The translations under genes were made by a program, and so were the position numbers. Of a stretch of DNA of 32,511 nt, positions 2,624 through 20,021 are shown piece by piece (within the stretch, counting starts at the first letter, position 1; each line of letters begins with the position of its first letter). The notes under the pieces are model-generated. The model saw nothing but the letters and a program-made list of their open reading frames with translations, made no database searches and was not told the origin of the DNA. Source of the DNA: Oscillospiraceae bacterium (lineage in GTDB: Bacteria; Bacillota; Clostridia; Oscillospirales; Oscillospiraceae). Where the stretch lies: assembly GCA_031261245.1 (NCBI GenBank), contig JAISKU010000100.1:1-32511 (forward strand). Reading direction: 5' to 3'.

Positions 2624-2651
2624 CAAACCTCCGGTTTATCCCTCGTATCCG

Positions 2652-2680
2652 TTGCAATTTTGTCGAAAGCTTGGTATAAT
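2652..2680 (+). promoter_or_regulatory. Strong sigma-A-type promoter (extended -10) for the 2709-6843 operon
   Basis: TTGCAA (2652..2657) - 17 nt - TATAAT (2675..2680), with TG at 2672..2673 giving TGnTATAAT. It lies 28 nt upstream of ATG 2709 and inside the 5' extension of track ORF 1890..4430, which argues against that extension. Confidence 0.6.
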
Positions 2681-2708
2681 CGCGGAAAAACAAAGGTTGG
2701 TGACGCAT

Positions 2709-4440: not shown

Positions 4441-5946
4441 ATGAACCTGTCCAAATCCCGCTATTGCAGCGCTGTGCAGTGCCCGAAAATCCTCTGGATG
4501 CAGTCGCACATGCCCGAGGAATACGACGAAACCGTGATGAATGCGAGCACCCTCGCGATGGGAAACGCCGTCGGTGACCTCGCCATGGGCTACTACGGCG
4601 ACTTCACCGAGATTCCGTACAGCGACGACAAATCTGCGATGCTCGCCGCGACACAGGCGGCGCTGAACAACGGCGTCGCCGTGATTGCCGAGGCGTCGTT
4701 CGCGGTTGACGGGAACTTTTGCAGCGTGGACATTCTGCGCAATTTCGGCGGGTATGTCGAGATTGTCGAGGTCAAAAGCTCGACCGAGCTGAAGGACATC
4801 TATCTGCACGACATGGCGTACCAGTGCTACGTCCTGCAACAGTGCGGGCTGAACGTCGCGCGCGTGTCGCTCATGCACATCAACAACCAGTACGTCCGGC
4901 AGGGCGCGCTGGATTTGCGGGAGCTTTTCACCGTCGAGGACCACACGGCTGACATGGACGCCCTGCTCGCGGATATTCCAGACAATATCGCGCGCTTCAA
5001 GGCGATCGCTGATCAGAGTGATGAACCCGATATCGGCATAAGCGAAAACTGTGACAAGCCGTATGAGTGCGGCTACAAGAGCCACTGCTGGCGGGATATC
5101 CCCGAAAACAGCGTATTTGACGTCGCGGGACATATGCACGCGACGAAAAAATGGGATATGTACCGGCGCGGCATCGTCACCTTTGCGGAGATTATCGCGT
5201 CCGGCGTAAAAATAAACGATAAACAGCGGCGGCAGGTGACGGGCGAGCTGTCGCGCGGCGCGCCCGAGATCAACAAGCGCGAAATTCGCCTGTTCCTCAA
5301 TTCTCTCCGCTATCCGCTGTACCACCTCGATTTTGAGACGTATCAGGCCGCGATTCCCGAGTACGACGGACTGCGGCCGTACTCGCAGGTGCCGTTCCAG
5401 TTCTCGCTGCACATTGAGTACACCGAGGGCGCGGAGCCGGAGCACCGCGAATTCCTCGCGGAGGCCGGAGCCGACCCGCGCCGAGAGCTTGCGGAGCGGC
5501 TTTGCGCGGATATCCCCGCGGGCGTGTGCGTCCTCGCCTACAACAAGGCGTTTGAGCAGTCGCGGCTGCTTGAGCTCGCGCGGCAGTTCCCGGATTTGAG
5601 CGGACACCTCACGTCAATCCGCGAGAATATTGAGGATTTAATGCTGCCGTTCGAAAAGCAGGACTACTACGATTGGCGCTTCAAGGGGTCGTACTCGATA
5701 AAGTATGTGCTGCCCGCGCTCTGCCCCGGCGACCCGGAGCTGGATTACAACGCGCTCGACCTGATTCACAACGGCGGCGAAGCGATGGACGCGTTCCCGG
5801 CGCTCGCGGCGCTCCCGCCCGACGAGGCGGAGCCGTACCGCCGCGCCCTGCTCGCGTACTGCCGCCTCGACACCCTCGCGATGGTGAAAATTCTGGCGCG
5901 GCTGCGTGAGGAAGCAAAGAAGGACAAGAGCTTTGAATCGATATAG
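4441..5946 (+). CDS. DUF2779-type protein (N-terminal PD-(D/E)xK/Cas4-RecB-like nuclease fold plus C-terminal RNase-H-like region)
   Basis: 501 aa. The N-terminus LSKSRYCSAVQCPKILWM and the motif VEIVEVKSS (ExK) match the pattern I recall for DUF2779. The C-terminal half has YHLDFETY...PFQFS, which looks like an exonuclease motif. GAGAGGTG SD; only a 10-nt gap after the preceding stop. Confidence 0.7.
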   Translation: MNLSKSRYCSAVQCPKILWMQSHMPEEYDETVMNASTLAMGNAVGDLAMGYYGDFTEIPYSDDKSAMLAATQAALNNGVAVIAEASFAVDGNFCSVDILRNFGGYVEIVEVKSSTELKDIYLHDMAYQCYVLQQCGLNVARVSLMHINNQYVRQGALDLRELFTVEDHTADMDALLADIPDNIARFKAIADQSDEPDIGISENCDKPYECGYKSHCWRDIPENSVFDVAGHMHATKKWDMYRRGIVTFAEIIASGVKINDKQRRQVTGELSRGAPEINKREIRLFLNSLRYPLYHLDFETYQAAIPEYDGLRPYSQVPFQFSLHIEYTEGAEPEHREFLAEAGADPRRELAERLCADIPAGVCVLAYNKAFEQSRLLELARQFPDLSGHLTSIRENIEDLMLPFEKQDYYDWRFKGSYSIKYVLPALCPGDPELDYNALDLIHNGGEAMDAFPALAALPPDEAEPYRRALLAYCRLDTLAMVKILARLREEAKKDKSFESI

Positions 5947-5973: not shown

Positions 5974-6843
5974 ATGATCATCAGCGCGTCGCGTCGAACG
6001 GATATTCCGGCGTTCTACTCCGAGTGGCTCGTGAACCGGCTGCGCGAGGGCTTTGTGCTCGTGCGCAATCCGGTGAATCCGTCGCAGATTCGGCGCGTCG
6101 AGCTCGCGCCGGAGTGCGTGGACGGCTTCGTGTTCTGGACGAAAAACGCCGCGCCGATGCTCCCGAAGCTCGACGCGGTTGCCGCGTTCCCGTACTATTT
6201 CCAGTACACCATCACCGCCTATGATTCGGACATCGAGCGCGGCCTGCCGTCGAAGCGCGACGTCGTGATTCCCGCGTTCCGGGAACTCGCAGCGCGCGTC
6301 GGAGCGGAGCGCGTCGTGTGGCGTTACGACCCGATTCTATTCACGCCGAGGTACGATTTCGACTACCACATCCGCGCGTTCACGCGGCTGTGCGGTTTGC
6401 TCGAGGGCAGCACGCGGCGGTGCGTCGTCAGCTTCGTGATTCCGTACAAGTCGATTGCGGGGAGCTTCCGTGCCGCCGGAATCGAGGTTCCGACGGGCGA
6501 CGCGCGGCTGCGGCTCGCTGAAAAACTGCTGCAAACAGCGGCGGAGCGCGGGATTGCGCTGTGCGCGTGCTGCGAGTCGCCGGAGTTGTACGCGCTCGGC
6601 GTCAGCCCGACGGCGTGTGTGGATTCGGCGCTGCTCGGCGAGATTGCGGGGCGGCCGCTCGAGGTCAAGCGCGACAAAAATCAGCGCGACGGCTGCAACT
6701 GCGCCGCGAGCGTCGATATCGGCGCGTACAACACGTGTCTGAACGGCTGCGCGTACTGCTACGCGAACCACGGCGCGCGCCGCGTCGCGTCGAACGCGGC
6801 GGCGCACGATGCGACGAGTCCGCTGATAGTGGGGAATGTTTAA
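5974..6843 (+). CDS. DUF1848 family protein (putative Fe-S cluster protein)
   Basis: 289 aa. The N-terminus MIISASRRTDIPAFYSEW is characteristic of DUF1848. C-terminal Cys cluster: CNCAASVDIGAYNTCLNGCAYCYAN. GAGGTG SD upstream. Confidence 0.75.
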   Translation: MIISASRRTDIPAFYSEWLVNRLREGFVLVRNPVNPSQIRRVELAPECVDGFVFWTKNAAPMLPKLDAVAAFPYYFQYTITAYDSDIERGLPSKRDVVIPAFRELAARVGAERVVWRYDPILFTPRYDFDYHIRAFTRLCGLLEGSTRRCVVSFVIPYKSIAGSFRAAGIEVPTGDARLRLAEKLLQTAAERGIALCACCESPELYALGVSPTACVDSALLGEIAGRPLEVKRDKNQRDGCNCAASVDIGAYNTCLNGCAYCYANHGARRVASNAAAHDATSPLIVGNV

Positions 6844-6860
6844 GATTTTTATTTTGTGCA

Positions 6861-6900
6861 ATCAAGGCTTACCGTTTTTCGCGGTAAGCCTTGATAATTT
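6861..6900 (+). terminator. Rho-independent-type terminator ending the 2709-6843 operon
   Basis: 14-bp perfect stem ATCAAGGCTTACCG (6861..6874) / CGGTAAGCCTTGAT (6882..6895) with a 7-nt loop, followed by AATTT. It marks the left edge of the AT-richer island. Confidence 0.6.
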
Positions 6901-6927
6901 CTAAATTGTCATATTACGAGAATTGTA

Positions 6928-6956
6928 TTGACCCGCAAATCCCTTTGGTCTATAAT
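6928..6956 (+). promoter_or_regulatory. Sigma-A-type promoter of the accessory + type III effector operon
   Basis: TTGACC (6928..6933) - 17 nt - TATAAT (6951..6956), 29 nt upstream of GTG 6986, which is preceded by GGAGGT. Confidence 0.6.
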
Positions 6957-6985
6957 TAAAACCAATATTCTGTGGAGGTGCAGCA

Positions 6986-7840
6986 GTGACGACATATAAA
7001 ACGATATACAATGCGCAGGTGAGTTGCCCCCCTTCAAGCAGAAAAAATACATACGAAAAACTGAAAGACTTTGAATCGAATTTTAGTACAATGGCCGCAA
7101 ATCTCCAAATCAATGGTACTGTTGACTACGAGATCGGGTATCAGGAAGAAACGGAATATTTTGACACGCTGTTCGATGTGTCAAAGGTACTGCTAACATG
7201 CGGCTTGAGTAACGATATATTCAAGAGCAAGAATAGAGGCCCTATTTATTTCAGCCATTCTGTATTCCCGGACACAAAAAAATACTCTGACTTTCGCAAA
7301 GCAATGAGAGCGCTTGACGCCATCGGCTATGTCAGTTATAAGGGCCATCGCGGGAATCCCTCCAATGCTTACATTATAACGGGCTGCGACATAACAATTG
7401 CTGATGATGAAGTAAAATCGCGTTTTCTCTCAAAGGACGCATGGTACGAGGTGTACATAATGGGAGTGGTACGAACGATTATGGAAACATCTTTCAATGA
7501 GGTGCCGTATGAATTGGCGACAGGCGTCACAATCAGGTTAAATAACAATGACATCACCGACTGTGATGTTTTGCTTGCGGTTGGCAATTCTGTTTTTTAT
7601 ATTGAAACAAAAGTAAGTGCTTATAAGGGCAAAGAATATGAGTCTTACATGAATAAATACGCTAACCACATCGAACTATTCGGATTTTCCCCTGTAAACG
7701 CTTGCTTTGTATGTCTGAACAAAACCGATGAGAAGTTAGCCGAAATGAGAACCTACGCAAACGGACGATTTCATGTTCATGATAACCGCTCATTTCCCAT
7801 GTGGATTGAGAACCGCATTCGGGAAGTATTAAAAAAATAA
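6986..7840 (+). CDS. Card1/Can2-type (DUF1887-like) PD-(D/E)xK nuclease domain protein with a non-CARF, winged-helix-like N-terminal half
   Basis: 284 aa; GTG start 5 nt after GGAGGTG. The C-terminal half has KDAWYEVYIMGVV (the GxW[FY]Exy helix I associate with the Card1/Can nuclease domain). It also has the catalytic-type pattern DCDVLLAVGNSVFYIETK (D..D..(E)xK). The N-terminal segment FRKAMRALDAIGYVSYKGHRGNPSNAYIITG looks like a wHTH recognition helix plus wing. I see no Rossmann/CARF pattern. Confidence 0.55.
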   Translation: MTTYKTIYNAQVSCPPSSRKNTYEKLKDFESNFSTMAANLQINGTVDYEIGYQEETEYFDTLFDVSKVLLTCGLSNDIFKSKNRGPIYFSHSVFPDTKKYSDFRKAMRALDAIGYVSYKGHRGNPSNAYIITGCDITIADDEVKSRFLSKDAWYEVYIMGVVRTIMETSFNEVPYELATGVTIRLNNNDITDCDVLLAVGNSVFYIETKVSAYKGKEYESYMNKYANHIELFGFSPVNACFVCLNKTDEKLAEMRTYANGRFHVHDNRSFPMWIENRIREVLKK

Positions 7841-7915
7841 CCGCACCCGCTGCGAAAAACCGTAAACCGCACCTCAATAAATTAAGTAATGCAAAACAAT
7901 TAGGAGTGATATCTG

Positions 7916-8755
7916 ATGACAAGAAAGAAAAAATTCTTCGCCGCGATTAGCCTTATCGACAAAGAAGAGCGTGAAGCCATATCATATGCGTTCCATGAAT
8001 CCTGCGAGATTTCAGGCGGCTATGTTATGTCTGTCCACAATCCCGTTATGGCGTTCATTATGGACAAGGTGAAGCCCGATGAGGAGCTTGACCTGTACCT
8101 TATTCTGTGCCGGGGCGACTGCGCCAACGGAGCGTTATCCGGTTCTGCGGCGAGAAACGCGGACAACAAAATCAGCACCGCCGTCGCCAAACGCCTACAG
8201 GAAATTCTTGGCGCGGGAAACGGTCTGACTGTTGATTCCCCGGTAGTTTTTGACGGCGCCTCACAGGCTTCCGGCGACTGTGACTTAAATACCGTACGCG
8301 AGATGTTTCGCAAAAAGAACGGCGCGGACGCGGACTTCAGGTGTACCGTCCATCTCGTGGACGACAGCGACAGCGAGGGTAATACGCTCGGCAACAGCAG
8401 CAAGGCGTATATTCAGCTGCTTCGCAAGCTCATCAAGCTGATTGAAGACCACGACATTATCTATGTTGACACCACATATGGGTTTAAACCATTATCTGAA
8501 GTATGGAGAAATCTCTGCATATACGCTGTTCGCGCGAAAACCGGGGCGGAGGTCGGCGCGTTTTCATACGGCAGCCTATACGGCGTTACGAACGAGAACC
8601 CGACAATCTTCAACAACCGCGCCTTTTTGGTAATGGGCGATATAATGAGCAACGCCTACGACAACAAAACCACGGACACGATTATTAACGACTTGCTTGA
8701 GGATTTGCAGAACGACAACTGGGACGAGGATGATTTAGAGGACGAGGAGGTATAA
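7916..8755 (+). CDS. Stand-alone CARF-like (TM1812/Csx-type Rossmann) protein with a poly-acidic C-terminal tail
   Basis: 279 aa; AGGAG SD 9 nt upstream. Pattern: beta-1 KKFFAAISLI, then ELDLYLILC, then helix YIQLLRKLIKLIEDHD followed by IIYVDTTYGFKPLS. The last matches the CARF signature D[IV]T[HG]GF[RK]..P. Then AFSYGSL. Tail: NDLLEDLQNDNWDEDDLEDEEV. Confidence 0.55.
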   Translation: MTRKKKFFAAISLIDKEEREAISYAFHESCEISGGYVMSVHNPVMAFIMDKVKPDEELDLYLILCRGDCANGALSGSAARNADNKISTAVAKRLQEILGAGNGLTVDSPVVFDGASQASGDCDLNTVREMFRKKNGADADFRCTVHLVDDSDSEGNTLGNSSKAYIQLLRKLIKLIEDHDIIYVDTTYGFKPLSEVWRNLCIYAVRAKTGAEVGAFSYGSLYGVTNENPTIFNNRAFLVMGDIMSNAYDNKTTDTIINDLLEDLQNDNWDEDDLEDEEV

Positions 8756-8757
8756 TC

Positions 8758-9999
8758 GTGGGAGCAAGGGAGCAGTGGCTATCCGAACAGGATTGGGAAA
8801 CTGCACGGTCAAGAATAAATGAGGCGGCGAATGACGGAAAGTCTTCTGATGCTGTTCTGCCCTACTTTCTCAACGAAAACGGCGTACGGGTCGGAAGGCT
8901 TAAAGAATATTACGGCGTGACGCTTTGCGAAATCAAGACAATCAAAGGTGTTTTATTTTGCGAACCCGGGGACATGGTGTGTATCGTAAGCGATAAGCTG
9001 TCAAAATATAAAAAATACTTGAGTGACAAGGGCTGCGAAGCAAAGGAGTTTTTCGAGTATCTGTGCGGAGAATTTACGCCCCATCCGAAGTTCGCCATTA
9101 AGCGGGCCCACCTTGACATAAACAACGAGCTCACAGAAGTACAGGAGAAAGACTTTTCAAAAATACACAAATATCTGACGGAATTGGCGGGTACCGAAAA
9201 CACTGACGACCATAAGGAGCTTATTTCGGCGCTGCTGAATTCAGGGGACGCCGATGATGACCTACGCAAATTGGGAAAGCGGCTTGACGCGAAAAAAACG
9301 CTTACCGTCAAAAAGAAACTGCGCGAATATGAGTCCCTGCGGTTGTCGCCGTCATTGTCACTTGACAAAGAGCGCGGCGACGACATCACGTTGTACGATA
9401 CCTTGTCGAGTGATGACGAGTATGAAATAGAACAAGATGTTCAAAGCAATGACCATGTTTCGGCAAACCTAAACAATGATTTAAACAACCTGTTTGGCGC
9501 CAAGATTGAAAGGCGTGTTCTGGCGACAAAGTATCTAACGGAGAATATTATCAAGACCAGCCCAAATGTGTCAAACTATCGCAGAAAGTACGAACGCGAA
9601 CACGGCGGCAAATTGCCTGTTCTGAAATACTATGTCGTCAATTACAAAGGTGTCCGCAGCGCGCTGGAACAATGTTCAAAAAAAGAATTGTCAGAATATG
9701 CGCAAGTCGATTGTGTCAACCCAAAAAGCAAACGCGGCCTCTGCGCTGATTGTGACCCGCAATGCGAAACTTATTGCGAAGTGGATGCCAAAACAATAGC
9801 GACGGCATACGCAGTATCGGCCGGGAGATATATGGTTCAGGTCGCGTGTCATATATTCGCAAGCGGAAAAGTTCCGTCAAACAGGCAGTTGCAAGAGTTC
9901 GGCGATATTTCGGGATTATACAGCGTATCACCGCTTGACGATAGGATGATAAACAGTATGATTAAAAATCTCGCAAAAAAATATAAAATAAGGTGGTGA
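8758..9999 (+). CDS. Hypothetical Cys-rich 413-aa protein; possible HTH / sigma-70 region 3.2-4-like C-terminal half (weak)
   Basis: GTG start 2 nt after the preceding TAA, with GAGGAGG 8 nt upstream. Cys cluster: CVNPKSKRGLCADCDPQCETYC. The segment LSLDKERGDDITLYDTLSSDDEYE...LFGAKIERRVLATKYL resembles the sigma-70 SLD..TLxD linker plus region 4.1 (compare SigK in this window: VSLSDPIDTDREGNALTLIDLI). AKTIATAYAVSAGRYMVQVA resembles a region 4.2 HTH. I see no region 2. Confidence 0.35.
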   Translation: MGAREQWLSEQDWETARSRINEAANDGKSSDAVLPYFLNENGVRVGRLKEYYGVTLCEIKTIKGVLFCEPGDMVCIVSDKLSKYKKYLSDKGCEAKEFFEYLCGEFTPHPKFAIKRAHLDINNELTEVQEKDFSKIHKYLTELAGTENTDDHKELISALLNSGDADDDLRKLGKRLDAKKTLTVKKKLREYESLRLSPSLSLDKERGDDITLYDTLSSDDEYEIEQDVQSNDHVSANLNNDLNNLFGAKIERRVLATKYLTENIIKTSPNVSNYRRKYEREHGGKLPVLKYYVVNYKGVRSALEQCSKKELSEYAQVDCVNPKSKRGLCADCDPQCETYCEVDAKTIATAYAVSAGRYMVQVACHIFASGKVPSNRQLQEFGDISGLYSVSPLDDRMINSMIKNLAKKYKIRW

Positions 10000-10004
10000 G
10001 CGGA

Positions 10005-11429
10005 ATGTCAATATTCGCGGTATACGACACGACGGGTATCCAAGACTATGTGTTCGCGTCTGGGAAGTTCTCCGAGTGTAAAGGCGCGTCTAACCTTGTG
10101 CGATCAATTTTTGCGGACATTCTGCCAGGTGCCATGCCTCCCGGTAGCATCACCGATTGGAAGCCCCGCACGGACATACCGCTTGACCGCGCCGCGCCCG
10201 CCGAGCTCGTGTGCGCGGGCGGTGGCAACGCCTATGTGGTTTTCAAAGACGAGAACACTTTCCGGGACACAACGAAGCGGTTTCTCCGAGCCGTGCTTGA
10301 AAAGACTTGTGGGATGGGTATCGCGGTCGCGGCGGTTGAAACAAATCTTGCGAACTTTGCCGCCGATTATAAAGAGCTGCAGCGGCGCATATCGCTCACA
10401 AAGGGCAACGTCAACAGGACGCTCATAGCGGGAAGCCGGAACATCACGCAATCAACCGCGCAGACGAACGAGCCCGTCACGAGGGTCGTATTGCGCCACA
10501 ATAAATATGTAAGCCTGTCCGAGGGGCAGTATCTCAAAACAAAATATATTCCCAAGGATATTCCCAAGGGCGCAAGAGAGTTTGACGATCTGACGGATGC
10601 GGGCAACAACTTTATCGGCGTAATCCACGCGGACGGGAATAACATGAGCGACAAAATCAGGGCGTTTGTGGCGAGTGAAATTGACTGGAACAGTGCCGTG
10701 CCGAAGCTTCGCCGTATGTCAAAAAACATTTCGGCTTATTTCCAACTTGCCTATGAGAAAACCGTGAGCGGCTTTGATTTGCCGATAATCTCGCTCGTCA
10801 CGGACGGCGAGGACATGACATTTATAATACAAGGCAAATACGCCGTATCCTTCGCCGCGGAATATCTCAGAAATGTTGAACGCCTAAACAACGAAGCGGA
10901 TATTAAGCCGTTTGACGACGACGAAACAATAACCGCCTGCGCCGGCGTGGCGCTGTTCCACAGCCATTTTCCGTTCATTGAGGCGTACAAAATGGCGGAG
11001 GAACTGTGCTCAAGCGCGAAAAGCGCGGCGCGACGCGCGCCGGACACATCATACGTGGACTTCCATATCCACAGCACGGGTTTTGTGACAACCGTTAGCG
11101 AACATAGGGGTAACTATTATCCGAATGTCGGAAAAAACCTGTATTCTCGACCATTACGGATTGGCGGCGGTTTTGAGGATTTTGAACAACTGACGGCGTC
11201 GCTTTCGGGCGGCGATAAGTATCCGCGCACAAAACTGAAATCGCTGCGCTCCGCGCTGAATAATCACGCGGACGGCGATTTTACCGACGCGCGGGCGCTG
11301 ATCAAGTCGCTCGGTCTGTCGGACGAAATAAAACCCTCCAAAAGCGCCGAGGTTCACGAATACGCGCTGCTGAACGACGCGCTTGAATTTATGGATACCT
11401 ATGAACGTGTCGCCGGAGGTGTGGCATGA
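10005..11429 (+). CDS. cas10: Minimal Cas10-like subunit (two palm/cyclase-like domains, no HD domain, no Zn finger)
   Basis: ATG 10005 (GGTGGTGA SD); GTG 9993/9996 are alternatives. It opens with IFAVYDTTGIQDYVFASGKFSECKGASNLV, the GIQxFIF...GAS palm motif of Cas10. Then come ELVCAGGGNAYVVF (degenerate palm 1) and FIGVIHADGNNMS. SLVTDGEDMTFIIQG sits at the GGDD position. ITACAGVALFHSHFPFIEAYKMAEELCSSAK matches the SAGI...AK motif. YSRPL and a short helical C-terminus follow. Confidence 0.75.
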   Translation: MSIFAVYDTTGIQDYVFASGKFSECKGASNLVRSIFADILPGAMPPGSITDWKPRTDIPLDRAAPAELVCAGGGNAYVVFKDENTFRDTTKRFLRAVLEKTCGMGIAVAAVETNLANFAADYKELQRRISLTKGNVNRTLIAGSRNITQSTAQTNEPVTRVVLRHNKYVSLSEGQYLKTKYIPKDIPKGAREFDDLTDAGNNFIGVIHADGNNMSDKIRAFVASEIDWNSAVPKLRRMSKNISAYFQLAYEKTVSGFDLPIISLVTDGEDMTFIIQGKYAVSFAAEYLRNVERLNNEADIKPFDDDETITACAGVALFHSHFPFIEAYKMAEELCSSAKSAARRAPDTSYVDFHIHSTGFVTTVSEHRGNYYPNVGKNLYSRPLRIGGGFEDFEQLTASLSGGDKYPRTKLKSLRSALNNHADGDFTDARALIKSLGLSDEIKPSKSAEVHEYALLNDALEFMDTYERVAGGVA

Positions 11430-13489
11430 CGAATATAGAATTAGAACTATTGTCCGACACCCACGCGGGCGCGGGACTCGGCGCGTTCGGCGGTGTTGAC
11501 GCAGAAATATCGCTCGACAAATACGGTCTGCCCATTATCCCCGCGAAGCGCGTCAAGGGCCGTCTGAGCGAAGCCGGAGAGGAAATACTCTCGGTATTTC
11601 CGCAGTATTCGGACATTTTTCTTAGATTGTTCGGCGAAAAGGGCAGCGAAAAATCCGGCGAGCTGGAAATCCATACGGGAACGCTTTCAAAGCCCTATCC
11701 CGCCGAGGATTTGGTAAAGGAGATAAAGAGCGAGCGGTACACGCCGAGTCGGGTGACGGAGCTTTTTACATCACTCCGTACGAGCACCGCCGTGAGCGAG
11801 GATGACGGATTGATTCATCAGACGGACGAGAGCGCCCTGCGCGTAATCCGCGTTGCCGACAAGGGCTTAAAATTCCGGTTTGATGTTGAATGCCCTGATG
11901 ACGGAACGGAGTTTTTGGGGAAATGCTGTTTAGCGTTGCGGGACATAGGCGCCAATCGCACAAGAGGCCTCGGCGAGGTGAGGTGCAGGCTCGTCGTCTC
12001 CGACGAGACTGCGGAGGCGTCAATCGGCAAATTTGCGCCGCAGTCGGTCACGGAGCATTTGAAATGCGCGACATATTTCTTAGAGCTTACAGAACCGGTC
12101 GCGATTTCCGATGACTATATCCCCGGCTCGTTGATTTTAGGCAGCTTCTCAAGCGCATGGGTTAGGAAACATCCCGGCGTACCGCCGCATACAAGCCCCG
12201 AATTTCGCAGGCTGTTCCTTGACGGCGGCGTAAGCTTTCTCTCGGCGTATCCTCTCAGCGATAAGGGCAAGGTGCTCTATCCCGCCGAGCGCGGTATTCG
12301 CTCAAAAAAAGACGGCAACGAGATTAAAGACGCGAGCTTCGGCGACATTCCGGATGAATACACCAAAACCCTCACCGGGTTCGGATACAAAAGCGGCAGT
12401 AACTACCATCAGCTCGGCGGGGTATCGAGAGCCGTCGCCGCGCACCACGCCAGACCCTCGGACAAGTCGATCGGACACGCGGTGGAAAATGCCGGCGCGG
12501 AAAGCGGCGCGTTTTATAAATACGACGCGCTGGCGCAGGGCTTAAAATTTGTCGGCGGTATTGTCGGTTCTGACTCGGATTTAGAGATTATACATTCGCT
12601 CGCGGACGGAACCGTGCGGCTTGGGAAGTCGCGGAGCGCGCAATACGGAAACGTAAAATTTGACTGGACTGACTATGCGTTTTTAGAAAACGAAAAGCTC
12701 ACCGTAAAAAGCGATGAGAGTTTTAAGATTATTTTGCGTTCTCCTTTAATACTTACGGACGATGACGGTACCGTCTCACCCGACCCGAAACTGCTGCTTG
12801 ACGCTTTGAATCTCGGCGGTTGCTCTCTCGTGAAGGTGTTTTGCTCGGCGGCAGTCGCGGCAGGCTATAACTCAAAGTGGCTCCTGCCGCGCACGCAGGA
12901 GTTCGCGCTTGCGGGCGGAAGTGTGATTGTCGCAAAAAATGAAAGCGGAAAAGATATTGCGCTTGATTCTGTCGAAAACTTTGTTGGCTTACGCAGGGGC
13001 GAGGGCTTCGGGCATGTTTTTATCGAAAAGCTTACAGACTCAAGGCTGACTCACAAGCAGCCTGCAAAACAGGACACCGTAAGCATTGGCTCCGCTAAAA
13101 CCCGGCATCTCAAAGAATTAATACTGAAACAGCAAGTATTATCACGCGTACAGTACGCTGTCGAGCAGAGCAAAGCAACGAATGTTACCAACTCACAGCT
13201 CGGCAGACTTCGCGGGTACCTGTCCGTGTGTGACAGCTTTGACAGTTTGGCCGAAAAGCTGAACAGCGTGGCTTGGAAGCAGACAAAGGACCGCGAAAAT
13301 ATCCAAAAATTCATCTTCGACCAAAAGGCCGAGGACGGCGACATTTTGAGTTTACTCAAACAAAAAGCCGAAAGCGTTGTCGAATCCGATATCTGGCGAC
13401 TGCTTGACGAAAGAGCGCGGTACTATTGGTTCAAGACATATCTGATTATGCTGATACGCAGACGCAAAGGAGAGAAGGAGGGACAGTAA
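11426..13489 (+). CDS. Fused RAMP protein, Cas7-Cas5-Cas11-like (type III-D variant style large fusion subunit)
   Basis: 687 aa; ATGA overlap with cas10. The N-terminal RAMP has GLPIIPAKRVKGRLSEA and the G-rich loop GANRTRGLGEV. A second RAMP-like unit has YIPGSLILGSFSS ... LGKSRSAQYGNV, followed by VGLRRGEGFGHV. The C-terminal helical part with NVTNSQLGRLRGYLS resembles the Cas11 (Csm2/Cmr5) SQLR motif. Confidence 0.7.
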   Translation: MTNIELELLSDTHAGAGLGAFGGVDAEISLDKYGLPIIPAKRVKGRLSEAGEEILSVFPQYSDIFLRLFGEKGSEKSGELEIHTGTLSKPYPAEDLVKEIKSERYTPSRVTELFTSLRTSTAVSEDDGLIHQTDESALRVIRVADKGLKFRFDVECPDDGTEFLGKCCLALRDIGANRTRGLGEVRCRLVVSDETAEASIGKFAPQSVTEHLKCATYFLELTEPVAISDDYIPGSLILGSFSSAWVRKHPGVPPHTSPEFRRLFLDGGVSFLSAYPLSDKGKVLYPAERGIRSKKDGNEIKDASFGDIPDEYTKTLTGFGYKSGSNYHQLGGVSRAVAAHHARPSDKSIGHAVENAGAESGAFYKYDALAQGLKFVGGIVGSDSDLEIIHSLADGTVRLGKSRSAQYGNVKFDWTDYAFLENEKLTVKSDESFKIILRSPLILTDDDGTVSPDPKLLLDALNLGGCSLVKVFCSAAVAAGYNSKWLLPRTQEFALAGGSVIVAKNESGKDIALDSVENFVGLRRGEGFGHVFIEKLTDSRLTHKQPAKQDTVSIGSAKTRHLKELILKQQVLSRVQYAVEQSKATNVTNSQLGRLRGYLSVCDSFDSLAEKLNSVAWKQTKDRENIQKFIFDQKAEDGDILSLLKQKAESVVESDIWRLLDERARYYWFKTYLIMLIRRRKGEKEGQ

Positions 13490-14793
13490 TGAGCGAAAAA
13501 CTCACGGTTAAGCGTGTTTATGCCGTTTGTAAAATGCGGCTTGAAGCACCGGCGCTCATTGGCACGTCCGAAGATATTGAGCGCGACCGCGATGTCGCGC
13601 TTAACAAGGACGGCAACCCGTTTATCCCCGGCACGACATTAGCGGGTATTTTGAGAAGCTCCCTGACCGTCAGCGATGCGGACACGCTGTTCGGCAAACG
13701 TATAAGAGCTAAGGGCGATGAAATCAAACAAAGTCCGCTATGGGTTTACGATGCAGAGATCTTTAACGGGCAGATTATCACTATCGATAATGTGTCGCTT
13801 GATGAAAATCAGAGAAACGCGAAAATACCTGAAAATCCGGAACTCGACCACATGAATAAATCTGCTAAAAACGAAGCGAAATTTGATATGCAGGCCGTGG
13901 ACAAAGGTGCGGAGTTCGACCTCCGTTTGTGTCTGATTGTTCGCGATGGCGACACAAAAACAGAGATTTTGCTCGCTCGTCTGCTTGAGACGCTGAACAA
14001 CCTCTACGTCGGCGGAAAAACCTCTCGCGGATTCGGTAAGTTGTCTTGCTTCGGTGTTTACAAACACGCTTTTGACTTCACGGGCGCGGATAAACAATCA
14101 CAGATGGACGCGTGGCTCGCATTTGAAGATTGGAAAACGCTTGAAACGGATGAGTACAGGCAAGACCTCGTGTTTATACCGCCGGTAGGTGTTTCGACGC
14201 TTTCCGCCAAATTGACGCTGAACGGCGCCGTGCTTGTCCGCGACATATATTCCGTTGAGGATGACGAGGACTTTGCGCACACTAAAAGCGCGGGATCTTC
14301 CGTGATATACGGCACATCGTGGGCAGGCGCGCTACGCGGTGGTTTGGCGCGGTTGTTCAAGTCAAACGGATATGAGAGCGCCGAAGCTTTCCTTGACAGC
14401 GTGTTCGGCAGACAGTATGGCGATAAGGCCGTAACCGAACCGTCGAAAATCCGCGTTGACGCGTCATATATCAGCGGCGGCGAACGGCTGATATACTCGC
14501 GCAATAAGATAGACCGGTTCACCGGCGGCACTGCAAATACTGCGCTGTTTACTAACCGTCCGCATTTCGGCGGTAAGACAATACTCACTGTACAATTCAA
14601 AACAGCCGATGTCGCTATAAGAGAGCTGTTGCTGCTTGCGCTTGACGCCCTGAACAAGGGACTAATTACGCTCGGCGGCGAAACCTCAATCGGGCGCGGA
14701 GTGTTCACCGTTGGTCGCGTATCCCTTGATGGTCAGAAAGCTCAATTCGGCGCTAAACCGACCGCGTTAAAGGAGGCGCTATCGCATGTTTGA
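13489..14793 (+). CDS. Fused double Cas7 (Csm3-like x2) RAMP protein
   Basis: ATG 13489 overlaps the preceding stop (TAATG), with AAGGAGAGAAGGAGG upstream. Unit 1 has DRDVALNKDGNPFIPGTTLAGILRS ... GGKTSRGFGKL. Unit 2 has SVIYGTSWAGALRGGL ... LGGETSIGRGVF. Confidence 0.75.
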   Translation: MSEKLTVKRVYAVCKMRLEAPALIGTSEDIERDRDVALNKDGNPFIPGTTLAGILRSSLTVSDADTLFGKRIRAKGDEIKQSPLWVYDAEIFNGQIITIDNVSLDENQRNAKIPENPELDHMNKSAKNEAKFDMQAVDKGAEFDLRLCLIVRDGDTKTEILLARLLETLNNLYVGGKTSRGFGKLSCFGVYKHAFDFTGADKQSQMDAWLAFEDWKTLETDEYRQDLVFIPPVGVSTLSAKLTLNGAVLVRDIYSVEDDEDFAHTKSAGSSVIYGTSWAGALRGGLARLFKSNGYESAEAFLDSVFGRQYGDKAVTEPSKIRVDASYISGGERLIYSRNKIDRFTGGTANTALFTNRPHFGGKTILTVQFKTADVAIRELLLLALDALNKGLITLGGETSIGRGVFTVGRVSLDGQKAQFGAKPTALKEALSHV

Positions 14794-15331
14794 CGAAAAA
14801 ATCGGCAACAAATTCGGAAACAATAAGGCGTGGGCCGTCTGTACTATGTACCACGGTGTGATCATCGGCAAATGGGACGGTAAACGCCTGAATTTTCATA
14901 AAGACGCGGAGTTCTCAGAGGATTGCGTCACGGAAATGCGCGTATTTAACAACGACGCGGAGCTGCGCTTTGTTAAGACAGACGGCGGTATAAAAGAGCG
15001 CTATATCACGGATGGCGCAAATTCAGACGTATACGACAAAAAGTATCTCGTCTACGGTACGGATTACACGCCGGACAGCGGCGGAATATTCCTAACCGAA
15101 GAACGCGGCGGCAAGCTGTGGTTTCCCGCCGTACCGGAGTTTGCGGACGGAAAGGTAAACCTCTGGCTCGGTATCCGCAACTATTTGAAATACAACCCCG
15201 TGTCAATTGGTGATGACGATACAAAACGTCAGACAGGCAAACCCGCGCTTGAGGTCACTGATTATCGTTACTTTGGATTTTACGAGGGGTTATCGTCTGA
15301 CGGCACAGCTACGACGGAGGTTTTGCTATGA
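14786..15331 (+). CDS. Small type III-D-associated protein in the Csx19 position; identity based on position only
   Basis: 181 aa; overlaps the upstream gene by 8 nt (ATGTTTGA) and the downstream gene by 4 nt (ATGA). Its size and its place between the double-Cas7 and the insertion-Cas7 match where csx19 sits in described III-D variant loci. I recognise no motif. Confidence 0.4.
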   Translation: MFDEKIGNKFGNNKAWAVCTMYHGVIIGKWDGKRLNFHKDAEFSEDCVTEMRVFNNDAELRFVKTDGGIKERYITDGANSDVYDKKYLVYGTDYTPDSGGIFLTEERGGKLWFPAVPEFADGKVNLWLGIRNYLKYNPVSIGDDDTKRQTGKPALEVTDYRYFGFYEGLSSDGTATTEVLL

Positions 15332-17295
15332 GCTTTGTGAATCCGTATAATTTTGTGACGCTTGAGGATTCCTGTGAGAAGAAAAATCGCGACATTCCGA
15401 TAAACGCCGAACGCTCCGGCGAAACCCTCTATACGGGTGAGTTCGTCTGCGAACTGACTACGCTCACGCCGCTGTTTATCCCGAATACAACTAATGATAA
15501 CACCTTCCCGGATACGGCAAAACAAAATTTGGACAAATACAATTCGGCGCTTGAACCTGACGGCAAGAAAGAGACGGAAACAAGCAAATCCTACGACTTT
15601 TTCAGCTACTCCGATATGTCAATAAAAGGCGCGACGCCAACGCAATCCCCGGTAATTCCCGGTTCATCGATTCGCGGCGTGATCCGCAGCGTGTTTGAAA
15701 CGGTCACAAACAGCTGTATGTCCACAAGCGACGGCAAAGAAACTCCGCTGTATAGACGTACACCTGCCGCAAAGAGCAAGTTCGGCGTCATTAAGAATGG
15801 TAAGTTATACTACTCCGGAACAGAGAAGCTTCTCGTGAAGGTGGATAATCCAAACTATTCTGCGCATCCTTTTGGGGCCGGTCTGCCGCTCTTACGCGGG
15901 TTGGCAAACGGGCAGGAAATATGGGTCACGCCGACTCAGGACAGATTTATTAAGAAAATCAAAAATAGAGACGGCACTTTCAAGATGATTTCTCTTAATC
16001 GCGGTGTTGCAAGTAAAAACCCGGTGGGTGAAGGGGTGTGCGGATACTACCTAAAAGGCGAACCCTTTGGAACGAAAAAACACTTTGATGCCGTTATGGT
16101 TCCAAACCTTACTTCAAAACCCTATGTCCTCACAGACCGCGACAAGGAGCGGCTCAAAAAGCTGATAGAGCTATATTCGCACGACAAAGATGGCGTTAAT
16201 CAGACCCTCGGACACAATGAGTACAAGGACTTCCTTGATGCGGAGGTTAAACCCGTTTACTATTCGGAGGTCGGCGGTAAGTATTATATTTCTCCGGCAA
16301 GTATCACAAAAGAGGTATTTGACCGTACAATCGCGGGCATACTCCAACATCAGGGCGGTTTCAACGCTTGCTCGAGAGCGGACAATCTGTGCGAGGCGTG
16401 CCATCTGTTCGGAATGATTGAAAAGGGCGAAATGGCGAAGACGCGCTCGTCGCGCGTTTCGTTCCGCGATGCGATTGCGCGCGACGCCGGAGACTATATG
16501 GGTGACGTTACATCTATGGCAATTCTCGGCTCGCCAAAAATTACCGCAACCGAGTTCTATATGCAACAACCCCGAAAGAACAATGATGTCTTCAACTACG
16601 ATTACGAGACAATCAATAAGCAATCGTCATTGCTCCGCGACGACGCGGTGCGTTTGCGCGGACGCAAATATTATTGGCACCACGGAACCGAACCCAAATC
16701 CGCAGGTCTTGATGACAAGCCAAAACAATATCAAATCACACGTCCCGTGTTAAAAGGCAAAACCTTTGTGTTTACCGTCGCCTTTGAGCGCCTGACGCTT
16801 GACGAGCTGCGCAAGCTGCGGTACAGCCTTGAGCTCGACGAGACTCACGCCCACAAAATGGGTCACGGCAAACCGATAGGCTACGGGAGTGCGCGGGTAA
16901 AGATTGACCGTGATAAAAGCCGAGTATTTACACTTAGCCCGGATTTTGTGATTGTCTGTGCATCGTTGCCGGACGCGGCATATGAGTTCACCTATGACAA
17001 CGCCGACTTCCTCGCGCTGACAGACATATCCGCGCCGAAAAAGAACGTTTCATATCCGAGAGGAACATATAGAGGCAAACCCACTGTATACGACTGGTTC
17101 GTGTTAAACCGCGAGGCAAACGGCGGCACCTCTACAAACCCGAGGTTTGCATATGTTCTGCCGAGGGCGAGCGCGCAGGATGTGACTTTACCGGAGATAA
17201 CAAAGCGTGACAGAGAAATCACACAGGGCAGAGGGTCAAACCGCGCCGTAGTGTGGGATAGCTTTAACAAAAGCGACGGTATGCCCACTCAGTGA
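15328..17295 (+). CDS. Cas7-family RAMP with large insertion (Cas7-insertion type)
   Basis: 655 aa. N-terminal FVNPYNFVTL. SPVIPGSSIRGVIRSVFE is the RAMP GSS[IL][KR]G motif. CSRADNLCEACHLFG is the Csm3-type CxxC..LFG motif. G-rich loop HKMGHGKPIGYGSARV. About 200 aa are inserted between the first two motifs. Confidence 0.75.
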   Translation: MSFVNPYNFVTLEDSCEKKNRDIPINAERSGETLYTGEFVCELTTLTPLFIPNTTNDNTFPDTAKQNLDKYNSALEPDGKKETETSKSYDFFSYSDMSIKGATPTQSPVIPGSSIRGVIRSVFETVTNSCMSTSDGKETPLYRRTPAAKSKFGVIKNGKLYYSGTEKLLVKVDNPNYSAHPFGAGLPLLRGLANGQEIWVTPTQDRFIKKIKNRDGTFKMISLNRGVASKNPVGEGVCGYYLKGEPFGTKKHFDAVMVPNLTSKPYVLTDRDKERLKKLIELYSHDKDGVNQTLGHNEYKDFLDAEVKPVYYSEVGGKYYISPASITKEVFDRTIAGILQHQGGFNACSRADNLCEACHLFGMIEKGEMAKTRSSRVSFRDAIARDAGDYMGDVTSMAILGSPKITATEFYMQQPRKNNDVFNYDYETINKQSSLLRDDAVRLRGRKYYWHHGTEPKSAGLDDKPKQYQITRPVLKGKTFVFTVAFERLTLDELRKLRYSLELDETHAHKMGHGKPIGYGSARVKIDRDKSRVFTLSPDFVIVCASLPDAAYEFTYDNADFLALTDISAPKKNVSYPRGTYRGKPTVYDWFVLNREANGGTSTNPRFAYVLPRASAQDVTLPEITKRDREITQGRGSNRAVVWDSFNKSDGMPTQ

Positions 17296-17328
17296 CACGA
17301 CAGCTTTGGCGCTGATCGTCTGAATCGT

Positions 17329-17368
17329 AAAACTCCTTGAAAATTTTCAAGGAGTTTTGTTTTGTTTT
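17329..17368 (+). terminator. Rho-independent terminator ending the effector operon
   Basis: Perfect palindrome AAAACTCCTTGAAAA/TTTTCAAGGAGTTTT (17329..17358) followed by GTTTTGTTTT. Confidence 0.75.
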
Positions 17369-17445
17369 ATCTGCGAAAAATCCAAAACCTCCCCACAATA
17401 AGATAATGTAGACACAAAAAATCATAATAAAAGGAGAACAACAGC

Positions 17446-17811
17446 ATGAGCTACAACACTTACGACAAGTACGGCAACAAAAAAGGCTACAGCACAACCT
17501 CCACCGGTATCTTTGGCGGCAATACGACGAGTCACTACAACAACTCCGGTAAGCGCACGAGCACAACGACCTACGACAAGGGCATCTTCGGCGGCACAAC
17601 AGCAAACCACTACGGCAGAGACGGCAAGAAATCCGGCTACAGCAAGAGGGAGACAGGCATGTTCGGCGGCAACTACACACAGCACTACGACAAGTACGGC
17701 AGCAAAACCGGCACTTCGCGACGCGAATCAGGTTTTTTCGGAGACAAGATCGTCCACTATGACAAGTATGGGAACAAGAGGGGCTCAAGCAAGAAGAGCG
17801 GGTGGTTCTAA
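17446..17811 (+). CDS. Gly/Tyr/Lys/Thr-rich protein built from 25-aa tandem repeats; function unknown
   Basis: 121 aa; AAAGGAG SD 9 nt upstream. Repeat register is exact: G[IMF]FGG at residues 21, 46, 71 and 96, and HYDKYG.K.G.S recurs every 25 residues. No signal peptide or TM segment. Confidence 0.65.
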   Translation: MSYNTYDKYGNKKGYSTTSTGIFGGNTTSHYNNSGKRTSTTTYDKGIFGGTTANHYGRDGKKSGYSKRETGMFGGNYTQHYDKYGSKTGTSRRESGFFGDKIVHYDKYGNKRGSSKKSGWF

Positions 17812-17917
17812 GCCACCCGCCCCGAGCGAAAGGGGGTGAGGGAACAAAAAGTATATGCTCGCGTTTCGACTATTGGCGTAATTCAACATTTTATAATTTT
17901 AAGGAGAAAACAACACC

Positions 17918-18331
17918 ATGAGTAAATTCAAACGAATCACCGCAATCGCACTCTCATTCATTATGATACTCAGCATGGGCGCGACCGTCGCGCTGGCGGC
18001 AAGCAACGACTACTCCATAAGCACACCATATTACAGAATAGGCACCAAGAAGCGACTCGATATCTACACGGACAGCAAAATGGCGGGGTGCGGAACCCCA
18101 TACATCCAACTCGGCACAAGTTTATTGGCACCATACGCAGAGGTAACACTCAAAGTTCAGGACTTGACTAACGGCAAAACGAATACTGTAAAAATGAGAC
18201 GAGGCTGCAAGCTGTATCTTGATCTAAACCACCGTTACTATATCACGGACACTTCGGCGCAGGTAACAAGCATCATACCGTACGACTGGAAACTAACAGG
18301 CACCTACAGAGTTTCGCGCATCGACTGCTAA
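17918..18331 (+). CDS. Small secreted protein (signal peptide), function unknown
   Basis: 137 aa; AAGGAG SD. N-terminus MSKFKRITAIALSFIMILSMGATVALA/AS has the n-h-c regions and an AxA cleavage site. Three Cys in the mature part. Confidence 0.65.
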   Translation: MSKFKRITAIALSFIMILSMGATVALAASNDYSISTPYYRIGTKKRLDIYTDSKMAGCGTPYIQLGTSLLAPYAEVTLKVQDLTNGKTNTVKMRRGCKLYLDLNHRYYITDTSAQVTSIIPYDWKLTGTYRVSRIDC

Positions 18332-18340
18332 CCTTGCGGC

Positions 18341-18374
18341 AGGAGCGCACCGTCATAAAAAGCGGTGCGCTCCT
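18341..18374 (+). terminator. 12-bp GC-rich hairpin after the 137-aa gene (terminator-like, no clear T tract)
   Basis: AGGAGCGCACCG (18341..18352) / CGGTGCGCTCCT (18363..18374) with a 10-nt loop. Confidence 0.45.
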
Positions 18375-18427
18375 CGCTTGTCTTACCGTTGTCGCGCCAA
18401 TACCGCCAAGTGCGTTTGGCAAGCAGC

Positions 18428-18488
18428 TTGACTGCAATCAAAATTTTGCCGTAATATAGTTGACGAAATTGGCGTTCTGATGTATGAT
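18428..18488 (+). promoter_or_regulatory. CRISPR leader with two tandem candidate promoters
   Basis: P1: TTGACT (18428..18433) - 18 nt - TAATAT (18452..18457). P2: TTGACG (18460..18465) - 17 nt - TATGAT (18483..18488). Both lie 55-115 nt upstream of the first repeat. Confidence 0.45.
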
Positions 18489-18543
18489 AAATGAGATAGG
18501 GCAGTGGTCTGAAAAAGTTGCACAGGTATCAAAAACGGGGGGT

Positions 18544-19138
18544 GTTTACAATTCAAGAATCTCGGCGCGAGATTGAAACCATAATAAATCCTTTCGTTTT
18601 TTACGACGTTGGGGCAGGAAATACCTTAACCTCGGTGCGAGATTGAAACCGATATTCATGTTGTTAATATAGATACAAAACGTAGGAAATACCTTACTCT
18701 CGGCGCGAGATTGAAACGTCATACTCATAGTGGTGTTGCTCCTTTCTTTTTTGTAGGAAATACCTTAATCTCGGTGCGAGATTGAAACTTTTCAGCGCCC
18801 TTTGGTTATGTGGATACGCTTAGGTCGGAAGAACCTTTATCTCGGTGCGAGATTGAAACTGCCATGTCTGGTACCTCCATCTTTTTAATAGCGTAGGAAA
18901 TACCTTAATCTCGGTGCGAGATTGAAACCCCGGAGAAGTGACGTGACCAGTCACCGCGGAGTGTAGGAAATACCTTAATCTCGGTGCGAGATTGAAACGC
19001 AACCTTCCTTTCAAATCGTTGTCATCATAAAAGTAGGAAATACCTTAATCTCGGTGCGAGATTGAAACGATTTTCAGGGCACTAGCCCGCCTTTCTTTTG
19101 GCGTAGGAAATACCTTAATCTCGGTGCGAGATTGGAGA
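18544..19138 (+). CRISPR. CRISPR array, 9 repeats / 8 spacers (32-35 nt); consensus repeat GTAGGAAATACCTTAATCTCGGTGCGAGATTGAAAC (36 nt)
   Basis: Repeats are at 18544, 18614, 18682, 18753, 18824, 18893, 18963, 19033 and 19103, each 36 nt. R4, R6, R7 and R8 are identical. R2, R3 and R5 carry 2, 2 and 4 substitutions. R1 keeps only the 3' 22 nt. R9 ends ATTGGAGA instead of ATTGAAAC. Orientation is plus because the repeat ends with the canonical 8-nt crRNA tag ATTGAAAC, all cas genes are co-directional, and the promoters lie upstream. Internal hairpin: AATCTCG-GTG-CGAGATT. Confidence 0.95.
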
Positions 19139-19146
19139 AACACATA

Positions 19147-19863: not shown

Positions 19864-19876
19864 CGGACAACAAGTG

Positions 19877-19899
19877 TTAATCTCGCCCGCTACGAGATT
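19877..19899 (+). repeat. Repeat-derived hairpin immediately after cas6 (orphan partial CRISPR repeat)
   Basis: TTAATCTCG (19877..19885) + 7-nt loop CCCGCTA + CGAGATT (19893..19899). Both arms are identical to the repeat hairpin TTAATCTCG-GTG-CGAGATT. The 5' part and the GAAAC tail are not conserved. Confidence 0.6.
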
Positions 19900-20021
19900 T
19901 TAAGCACCCCTGAAATTTATTCAAGGATGCTTTTGTTTTTATGTGAAAAATCTGAAACCGCCTCTCAATATAAAATCAAACCCACAACCCCAAAGCTTTA
20001 TTTTGAAAGGATTCCACCACC

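Follow-up and report, generated by a model that had tools for sequence, protein, structure and literature searches.

A rare three-gene cassette ahead of cas10 in a type III-Dv CRISPR-Cas lineage places a stand-alone CARF protein beside a CARF-less nuclease-like protein

How does a CRISPR-Cas locus of type III convert the signal of Cas10 into an output when its sensor and its effector enzyme are found on different polypeptides? Type III signalling is usually seen as a sensor and an effector joined in one protein, as in Csx1/Csm6, Can2/Card1, Cami1 and CalpL. The question is raised by a locus on contig JAISKU010000100.1 of an Oscillospiraceae bacterium (assembly GCA_031261245.1), of which we analysed positions 1 to 32,511 of the forward strand (32,511 nt; hereafter the window). 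Three genes, here called P1, P2 and P3, precede a short cas10. The only sensor of this locus is a remodelled stand-alone CARF protein (P2), no effector enzyme is recognisable besides a nuclease that lacks CARF (P1), and the Cas10 is apparently active; P3 is a Cys-rich orphan. We show that in this Cas10 sub-lineage the three-gene cassette before cas10 replaces the usual ancillary effector. The trio may form a new signalling output, a possibility that we weigh below against the other roles open to each protein.

The locus is built around eight co-directional open reading frames (ORFs) on the plus strand between 6986 and 17295, as follows.

6986-7840, plus strand: P1, 284 aa, CARF-less PD-(D/E)xK nuclease-like protein
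7916-8755, plus strand: P2, 279 aa, stand-alone CARF protein of the CARF2/Csx1 lineage (PADLOC CARF2--CARF, 5.6e-19)
8758-9999, plus strand: P3, 413 aa, orphan
10005-11429 (ORF 9993/10005-11429), plus strand: cas10, short and HD-less (PADLOC Cas10d, 5.3e-94)
11426-13489, plus strand: cas7-cas5(csx10)-cas11 fusion (PADLOC Cas5_IIId, 6.6e-114 over 3-654; TIGR02674 Csx10)
13489-14793, plus strand: cas7-2x, two fused Cas7 domains (PADLOC Cas7_IIId, 3.7e-86; two RAMP stretches in Pfam)
14786-15331, plus strand: csx19 (TIGR03984, 3.3e-22; PADLOC Csx19, 1.2e-25)
15328-17295, plus strand: cas7-insertion, a TIGR03986 RAMP (TIGR03986, 5.1e-82; PADLOC Cas7_IIId, 1e-129)

Direct reading of the sequence bore out both this layout and all six junctions quoted in the initial annotation of the window, which had been made from the sequence alone. 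P2 and P3 are joined by TAA-tc-GTG (8753-8760), and P3 ends with TGA at 9997-9999 before the cas10 start codon ATG at 10005. Further downstream the junctions are ATGA at 11426 (cas10 and cas7-cas5-cas11), TAATG at 13487, where the cas7-2x ATG at 13489 overlaps the preceding stop codon, ATGTTTGA at 14786 (cas7-2x and csx19) and ATGA at 15328 (csx19 and cas7-insertion).

Judged by gene content, the region is shown to encode the interference module of a type III-Dv CRISPR-Cas system in full, with an HD-less Cas10, fused subunits in order, and an array with Cas6. The initial annotation had recognised a type III-D-variant-like effector with a minimal Cas10, and the PADLOC, TIGR and PDB 8s9t matches identify it as III-Dv with a short, HD-less Cas10. 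The sequence of the latter starts directly at the palm N-terminal motif and matched PDB 8s9t_C, the Synechocystis III-Dv Cas10, at 4.5e-19. The Cas7-Cas5-Cas11 fusion matched 8s9t_A (1.4e-5), and the Cas7-insertion protein matched 8s9t_E and Cas7-11 chains.

In the Cas10 palm, HADGN is intact and DGED stands where GGDD is expected; in the alignment with 8s9t_C, DGED falls on the GGDD of the chain. Among 38 related Cas10 sequences, DGED was invariant in the clade of the window and exclusive to it. The corresponding motif is DGDD in a sister clade and GGDD, AGDD or SGDD in more distant clades. The Cas10 of the window, with its DGED, is probably active, since HADGN is conserved, the acidic pair is retained as an invariant E-D, and the DGDD sister clade carries the cyclic oligoadenylate (cOA) effector Csx1. 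Analogy points the same way, because the III-Dv system of Synechocystis produces cOA, which activates Csx1 (PMC11026444), and in III-D2 a motif of the GDE type has catalytic activity (PMC13294483). We judged an inactive Cas10 unlikely, as HADGN and both acidic residues are invariant. Signalling by S-adenosylmethionine-AMP (SAM-AMP), as in III-D2 (PMC13294483), was set aside as the default given that there is no CorA and that the sensor is a CARF2 protein. Elsewhere in the window, a 7TM-GGDEF diguanylate cyclase in the host flank (22381-23949, plus strand) gave a weak Cas10 palm2 match (0.0018), which is explained by the cyclase fold common to both.

We scanned one genome per species and the JGI metagenomes with a Cas10 profile, obtained 37 loci, and ran hidden Markov models (HMMs) of P1, P2 and P3 on all six-frame ORFs of these loci. 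The three proteins occurred only with the closest Cas10 clade (>50% identity) and always in the order P1-P2-P3-cas10. In agreement with the initial annotation, which had placed the three genes at the head of the effector operon, each related locus of that clade has all three families next to its short cas10. They were absent from 33 other III-D-like loci and from viral contigs. The carriers represent four diverged lineages (the window and six further contigs).

First lineage: the window and an identical Logan contig
L001: an ENA contig on which genes for relaxase, MobC, AAA_25 and DUF6076 lie upstream (L001 83-4582)
L002: a metagenome-assembled genome (MAG) of Gracilibacteraceae
L039, L041 and L042: the fourth lineage, one JGI and two ENA assemblies

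Three of the four lineages are known from metagenome contigs or a MAG only. In L041, a reverse transcriptase and Cas1 are encoded downstream of cas7-insertion (13296-14489), and a remnant of an IS21-like transposase lies 5' of the P1 orthologue (640-1200).

Pairwise identities were congruent across P1, P2, P3 and Cas10, with L001 and L039 closest to each other and the window most distant, which indicates that the trio was inherited as one unit with Cas10. P1 and P3 evolved faster, at 28-51% identity compared with 49-70% for P2 and Cas10 (54-69% for Cas10 alone). By these comparisons the trio is a co-inherited, lineage-specific and very rare cassette. It was not found in Pfam, NCBIfam, PADLOC or PHROGs, nor in four published surveys (PMC6546367, PMC11229360, PMC12409355, PMC12669027). 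None of the three proteins belongs to a curated family. A homologue search by word index retrieved no sequence but the query with P1 or P3, and two relatives with P2. Orthologues of 29-36% identity, which synteny brought to light, escaped it.

The same census bears on the possibility that the trio is cargo of a mobile island that does not work with the CRISPR locus, be it a module of restriction-like or toxin type or an island-maintenance regulator. Its surroundings are indeed mobile: GC content is 41-55% over ~6.9-20 kb of the window and 60-65% in the flanks, so that the locus is on a horizontally acquired low-GC island, and the relatives have the relaxase and MobC genes or the insertion sequence (IS) remnant mentioned above. 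The fast evolution of P1 and P3 relative to Cas10 would also suit cargo. However, all four diverged lineages retain the gene order, the orientation and the position directly before cas10 despite differing flanks, two of them have P3 abutting or overlapping cas10, and none of the three proteins was found away from this cas10. Moreover, P2 is a CRISPR-signalling domain, and the only profile matches of P1 are CRISPR ancillary nucleases. We therefore regard independent cargo as highly improbable.

P1 consists of a variable N-terminal region (residues ~1-140) and a nuclease core (~145-284) in which D192, D194, E207 and K209, the classical PD-(D/E)xK signature, are invariant in all four orthologues. 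In PADLOC, P1 and its orthologues (n=4) matched only five models, all of the CARF-PD-(D/E)xK (Can/Card1) class. The matches to the CARF4--CARF_PDDEXK-type models covered the nuclease part alone (positions 232-333 out of the 364 in the profile; E from 3.4e-4 to 1.3e-4), and Pfam returned only NERD at 0.03. No CARF model matched P1 or any orthologue, and the N-terminal ~140 aa are too short for such a domain and unmatched. The description of P1 as a PD-(D/E)xK nuclease lacking CARF, given in the initial annotation, thus agrees with the invariant motif and with matches confined to the nuclease part. By eye, the N-terminal region has a helix-then-hairpin pattern that would be compatible with a winged helix-turn-helix. 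A permissive HMM search with P1 over all ORFs of 39 loci retrieved no CARF-fused relative, and a search against plasmids gave no match.

We take the start of P1 to be GTG 6986, which has a GGAGGT Shine-Dalgarno sequence and an N-terminus conserved in the orthologues. A shorter form predicted by one gene caller (249 aa, ATG 7091) has neither a ribosome-binding site nor N-terminal conservation and was rejected. Simple fission of a Can2/Card1 gene into P1 and P2 was also rejected, because P2 belongs to the Csx1-type CARF2 lineage and the nuclease of P1 resembles the kind fused to CARF4.

P2 was correctly described in the initial annotation as a stand-alone CARF-like protein. Besides PADLOC CARF2--CARF, it gave weaker matches to Csx1 models in PADLOC and to TIGR02221 (0.0024), and nothing meaningful by sequence among all PDB chains. 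It lacks the HEPN region that is fused to CARF in Csx1. The sequence D-T-T-Y-G-x-K-P, which resembles the DxTHG motif that follows a strand in CARF domains, is invariant, and TYGxKP is shared with CARF2-only proteins of the sister Cas10 clade. The family (279-303 aa) further has an insertion of ~80 aa with the invariant cysteines C65, C69, C122 and C143, and a conserved acidic C-terminal tail; net charge is -15 to -26. The Cys-bearing insertion and the acidic tail are candidate partner-binding elements. Other CARF or SAVED proteins or effectors were not found on the island or in L001, and the locus has no CARF-fused effector.

The sister Cas10 clade, which we know from Synergistales and Clostridiales MAGs, has a Cas10 of 35-38% identity and likewise encodes the five effector genes. 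On contigs that extend sufficiently, and with the exception of L008, further genes follow downstream. Csx1 (CARF2-HEPN) is present in L004 and L007, L009 has no Csx1-sized ORF, and the clade also has cas6 or a radical-SAM gene in this region. Next to these lies a CARF2-only protein of 218-224 aa, a distant homologue of P2 without the insertion and the tail (E 1e-69 to 1e-73 against the family model in L004 and L007). It is followed by a conserved gene for a protein of 268-338 aa, with which it overlaps in L004 and L009 and from which it is separated by 2 nt in L007. In L004 and L007 the Csx1 gene is found immediately upstream of the pair. The pairs have these positions.

L004, 12632-14156: CARF2-only gene and partner gene
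L007, 19524-21007: CARF2-only gene and partner gene
L009, 10914-12555: CARF2-only gene and partner gene

The 2-nt gap between P2 and P3 in the window matches this coupling. A CARF2-only gene and the partner gene after it make up a unit that is conserved, and in this unit P3 holds the position of the partner. Since the ancestor of P2 had a self-sufficient CARF effector as its neighbour, it did not originally work as the sensor of that effector; an ancestral ring-nuclease or regulatory role is more likely.

In a different account of the trio, P2 would be an off-switch, either a ring nuclease or a messenger sponge, P3 would be an accessory, and P1 would either sense the messenger through its non-CARF N-terminal region or join the HD-less complex as a DNase. 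CARF-only proteins, where characterised, are ring nucleases (PMC8284326, PMC12409355), and a homologue of P2 beside a complete Csx1, as in the sister clade, is a classic ring-nuclease context. In addition, S12 after the first strand of P2 (A-I-S), invariant in the family, and the G-x-K of TYGxKP (G-F-K within TYGFKP) loosely recall the catalytic motifs of Crn1, motif-I GTS and motif-II GRK (PMC10018336). The sister CARF2-only proteins, however, have Pro for Ser at the motif-I position, so that the family is not obviously catalytic. At 279-303 aa, P2 also exceeds the ceiling of 250 aa in use for ring nucleases (PMC12409355), and the ~80-aa Cys-bearing insertion and the acidic tail, both absent from the sister relatives, suggest a new function. 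An off-switch would also leave the locus with no recognisable messenger-activated effector.

The part of this account that concerns P1 has a precedent. NucC senses its messenger with neither CARF nor SAVED. Sensing in the manner of NucC is countered by the finding that no NucC model in PADLOC matched P1. A role as complex-associated DNase would fit the lack of an HD domain in the Cas10 of the window, and restriction-endonuclease-like accessory nucleases of type III loci that lack CARF are known and have been proposed to join the complex (PMC6546367). We consider the account as a whole less likely than not, but take a ring-nuclease role of P2 as a serious competitor of the relay preferred below. 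Stand-alone CARF proteins are commonly interpreted in this way, an option that the initial annotation did not take up.

P3 gave no significant match, alone or with its orthologues, in Pfam, NCBIfam, PADLOC or PHROG, and no match by sequence to PDB chains. Its family came to four members in all when HMMER was run exhaustively on 1.84 billion sequences that represent about 15 billion proteins. Helices make up most of the protein, which also has an acidic linker and, C-terminally, a Cys cluster that reads CxxC-x5-6-C-x3-C-x3-C in the orthologues and in which four cysteines (C319, C332, C336 and C340) are invariant. AlphaFold2 on the four-sequence alignment gave an N-terminal domain (7-196) with a predicted local distance difference test (pLDDT) of 70-85 and a poor remainder, and on the single sequence an unusable model (pLDDT 35). 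Foldseek with the N-terminal domain found nothing with E<0.1 in PDB and BFVD. The initial annotation had seen sigma- or helix-turn-helix-like segments in P3. This was not upheld: the best matches were ArpU (E 0.059) and one PHROG regulator (0.051), with no match in Pfam or Foldseek. On present sequence comparisons the effector is a new III-Dv member and P3 belongs to nothing known.

The position of P3 suggests another account, which overlaps with the one we prefer (below): P2 and P3 would be a messenger-responsive regulatory pair in which a regulator of transcription or redox state is retained or set free by the CARF protein, and P1 would be a separately controlled nuclease. A partner gene directly after the CARF2-only gene, and often overlapping it, occurs in both clades. 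The sister partner shows weak, convergent sigma-70 matches (TIGR02937 1.3e-4, PHROG sigma factor 0.005, SigI 0.04), and the sister pair of CARF2-only and sigma-like proteins could be an undescribed route from CARF to sigma factor or transcription. P3 itself offers its faint regulator matches and its invariant Cys cluster. The arrangement also parallels, in function, CalpL-CalpT-CalpS, and type III signalling is known to have outputs at the level of transcription (CalpS; PMC11229360). Against such a pair, P3 has no significant sigma or helix-turn-helix family match and no fold match, and the sister sigma assignment is below curated cut-offs and accompanied by no Pfam or PDB sequence match. We tried P3 as a homologue of the sigma-like sister protein and rejected it at an hhalign probability of 0.2%; hhalign likewise ruled out P1 as a homologue of the 268-338-aa protein. 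A dedicated regulatory pair is in our view unlikely.

Our preferred reading, which we hold tentatively and at somewhat less than even chances, is a relay in which P2 binds the Cas10 messenger and acts on its partner P1, with nuclease output, and/or on P3. The initial annotation had suggested such a split of sensor and effector, and the idea is plausible. In this model, binding of a foreign transcript guided by CRISPR RNA would activate the Cas10 palm (HADGN, DGED) to make a nucleotide messenger, most likely cyclic tetra-adenylate (cA4) because the sensor of the locus is of the Csx1-type CARF2 lineage. P2, the sole recognisable nucleotide sensor in the locus, would bind the messenger and, lacking an enzymatic domain, would relay the signal by protein-protein contacts to P1 and/or P3. 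As the output, P1 would cleave nucleic acids non-specifically, and P3 may contribute a regulatory or redox-sensitive input. The DGED palm and the remodelled CARF, with its insertion and acidic tail, might go together with a changed messenger. To our knowledge, no earlier type III ancillary pathway has its nucleotide sensor and its nuclease effector as separate polypeptides. That P2 is a free-standing receptor rather than an off-switch, signalling in trans to the CARF-less, Can/Card1-like P1 and/or P3, is a claim we make with reserve and think open to serious doubt.

Several points weigh against a relay. The link of P2 to P1 or P3 is putative, and there are only four sequences per family. We infer the activity of the DGED Cas10 from its motifs and from analogy. 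P1 resembles nuclease domains of the Can/Card1 type weakly (E about 1e-4) and matched no PDB chain, including the solved Can1/Can2/Card1 sequences, and for the CARF-less restriction-endonuclease-like accessories already recorded in type III loci other roles have been proposed (PMC6546367). P2 aligns only to the C-terminal half of the CARF profile (161-255), characterised stand-alone CARF proteins are the ring nucleases cited above, and the sister homologue of P2 coexists with a self-sufficient CARF-HEPN effector. Finally, 75 nt lie between P1 and P2 in the window (7841-7915), and 68-142 nt in the other loci. A gap of this size means that they are not translationally coupled, contrary to the initial annotation, and in the window it carries a recurring 26-nt motif.

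This motif also bears on how the operon may be transcribed. The relevant sites are the following.

6928-6956, plus strand: sigma-70-like promoter candidate TTGACC-17-TATAAT upstream of P1 (consensus match only)
7854-7879, plus strand: 26-nt motif GAAAAACCGTAAACCGCACCTCAATA (also written GAAAAAYCNNAAACCNCNYCNCAATA) inside the P1-P2 gap
17327-17370, plus strand: intrinsic-terminator-like hairpin with a 15-bp stem (17327-17360), followed by a T-run; the top terminator-like site (consensus match only)

In a scan of 6500-17800, TTGACC-17-TATAAT had the top promoter-like score (11/12); the AT-rich island contains 21 promoter-like sites compared with 10.2 ± 3.7 expected. A hairpin with a T-run that closes the upstream DUF1848 gene precedes the promoter candidate. 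The 26-nt motif is present in three plus-strand copies (7854-7879, 17375-17400 and 19945-19970), all intergenic and inside the low-GC island, each 35-75 nt 5' of a start codon: that of P2, that of an ORF at 17446, and that of a gene at 20022 encoding a transglutaminase-like protein of 505 aa. It was not found in the related loci and may be a promoter or a regulatory box. The initial annotation had bracketed the eight genes by a single promoter and a single terminator. Both sites exist and are the best-scoring of their kind in the scan; that there is a single promoter is not assured, because the P1-P2 gap carries the recurring motif.

Nor does the locus end at 17368, as had been thought, since a CRISPR array and cas6 come after the terminator-like site.

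18460-18488, plus strand: candidate leader promoter TTGACG-17-TATGAT upstream of the CRISPR array (read by eye, no tool score)
18544-19138, plus strand: CRISPR array of nine 36-nt repeats (GTAGGAAATACCTTAATCTCGGTGCGAGATTGAAAC) and eight spacers of 32-35 nt
19147-19863, plus strand: cas6 (Pfam CRISPR_Cas6, 1.4e-10)

The repeats end in ATTGAAAC. Those proximal to the leader are degenerate (9, 2 and 2 mismatches), and the last one is degenerate at its 3' end. None of the eight spacers matched the phage collection, and neither cas1 nor cas2 was found in the window. The degenerate leader-proximal repeats, the lack of cas1 and cas2 in the window and the lack of spacer matches together suggest that the array is no longer acquiring spacers. 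An Rfam scan of 6500-20100 returned nothing.

Two small ORFs without family assignment lie between the terminator and the CRISPR leader. The first (17446-17811, plus strand; 121 aa) has a good ribosome-binding site, is rich in Gly, Tyr and Lys, contains four to five imperfect repeats (YDKYGNKKGxS...G.FGG...HY) and matched no family in Pfam or PHROGs. The second (17918-18331, plus strand; 137 aa), between the effector operon and the leader, has a signal-peptide-like N-terminus and no family match. Upstream of the island, genes of host-like GC content encode a Hen1-type RNA-repair methyltransferase (1203-2567, minus strand), a DUF2779 protein that weakly matches a Cas4-like nuclease (4441-5946, plus strand) and a DUF1848 protein (5974-6843, plus strand); an ORF of 846 aa at 1890-4430 has no Pfam match. 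In the high-GC flank on the other side, 24485-24740 contains two tandem arrays (a 19-nt unit x4.4 and a 20-nt unit x4.1) flanked by a 35-nt direct repeat with an inverted repeat (GGGTCGATGTCCACATCGACCC).

If the relay is true, a sensor and effector working in trans would represent a principle of wiring that is new and that might find use in modular diagnostics. The other outcomes would be an effector with a new, non-CARF mode of sensing, or P3 as the real output. Significance is limited by rarity, with only four lineages known. With accessory genes that come to about 3 kb and five genes for the effector, the system is small, and it is therefore directly testable in E. coli.

In this study we describe a locus that shares parts with several known type III systems. 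CalpL-CalpT-CalpS and Csx29-Csx30-RpoE are precedents for a type III signal passed between separate polypeptides to a regulatory output. In contrast to these, the window has no SAVED domain, Lon protease or CHAT protease, P1, P2 and P3 matched no SAVED or Lon model in Pfam, NCBIfam or PADLOC, and P3 is not recognisable as a sigma or anti-sigma factor. The ring nucleases Crn1/Csx14, Csx16 and Csx20, and the proteins covered by PADLOC 'CARF2--CARF' and TIGR02221 (TM1812-like), are stand-alone CARF proteins in type III loci, like P2. Unlike them, P2 has the ~80-aa Cys-bearing insertion and the long acidic tail, and there is no CARF-fused effector for it to switch off.

P1 resembles NucC and clusters 37 and 45 of Shah et al. 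(PMC6546367) as a CARF-less nuclease of the PD-(D/E)xK type attached to a type III system, and differs from NucC in matching none of its models. With Can1, Can2 and Card1, the cA4-activated CARF4-PD-(D/E)xK nucleases, the core of P1 shares the D..ExK signature; it does not have the CARF that is the defining sensor of that family. The CARF of Can/Card1 is of the CARF4 type, whereas the CARF that neighbours P1, namely P2, belongs to a different lineage, CARF2.

The closest described system is III-Dv of Synechocystis sp. PCC 6803 (pSYSA; PDB 8s9t-8s9x; PMC11026444), whose effector gene set and order are the same as in the window and whose chains C, A and E of 8s9t are directly matched by window proteins. 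The two Cas10 proteins are ~24% identical, with 474 aa in the window and 575 aa in Synechocystis. Compared with that system, the window has DGED for GGDD, no Csx1, and three unrelated genes that lead the operon.

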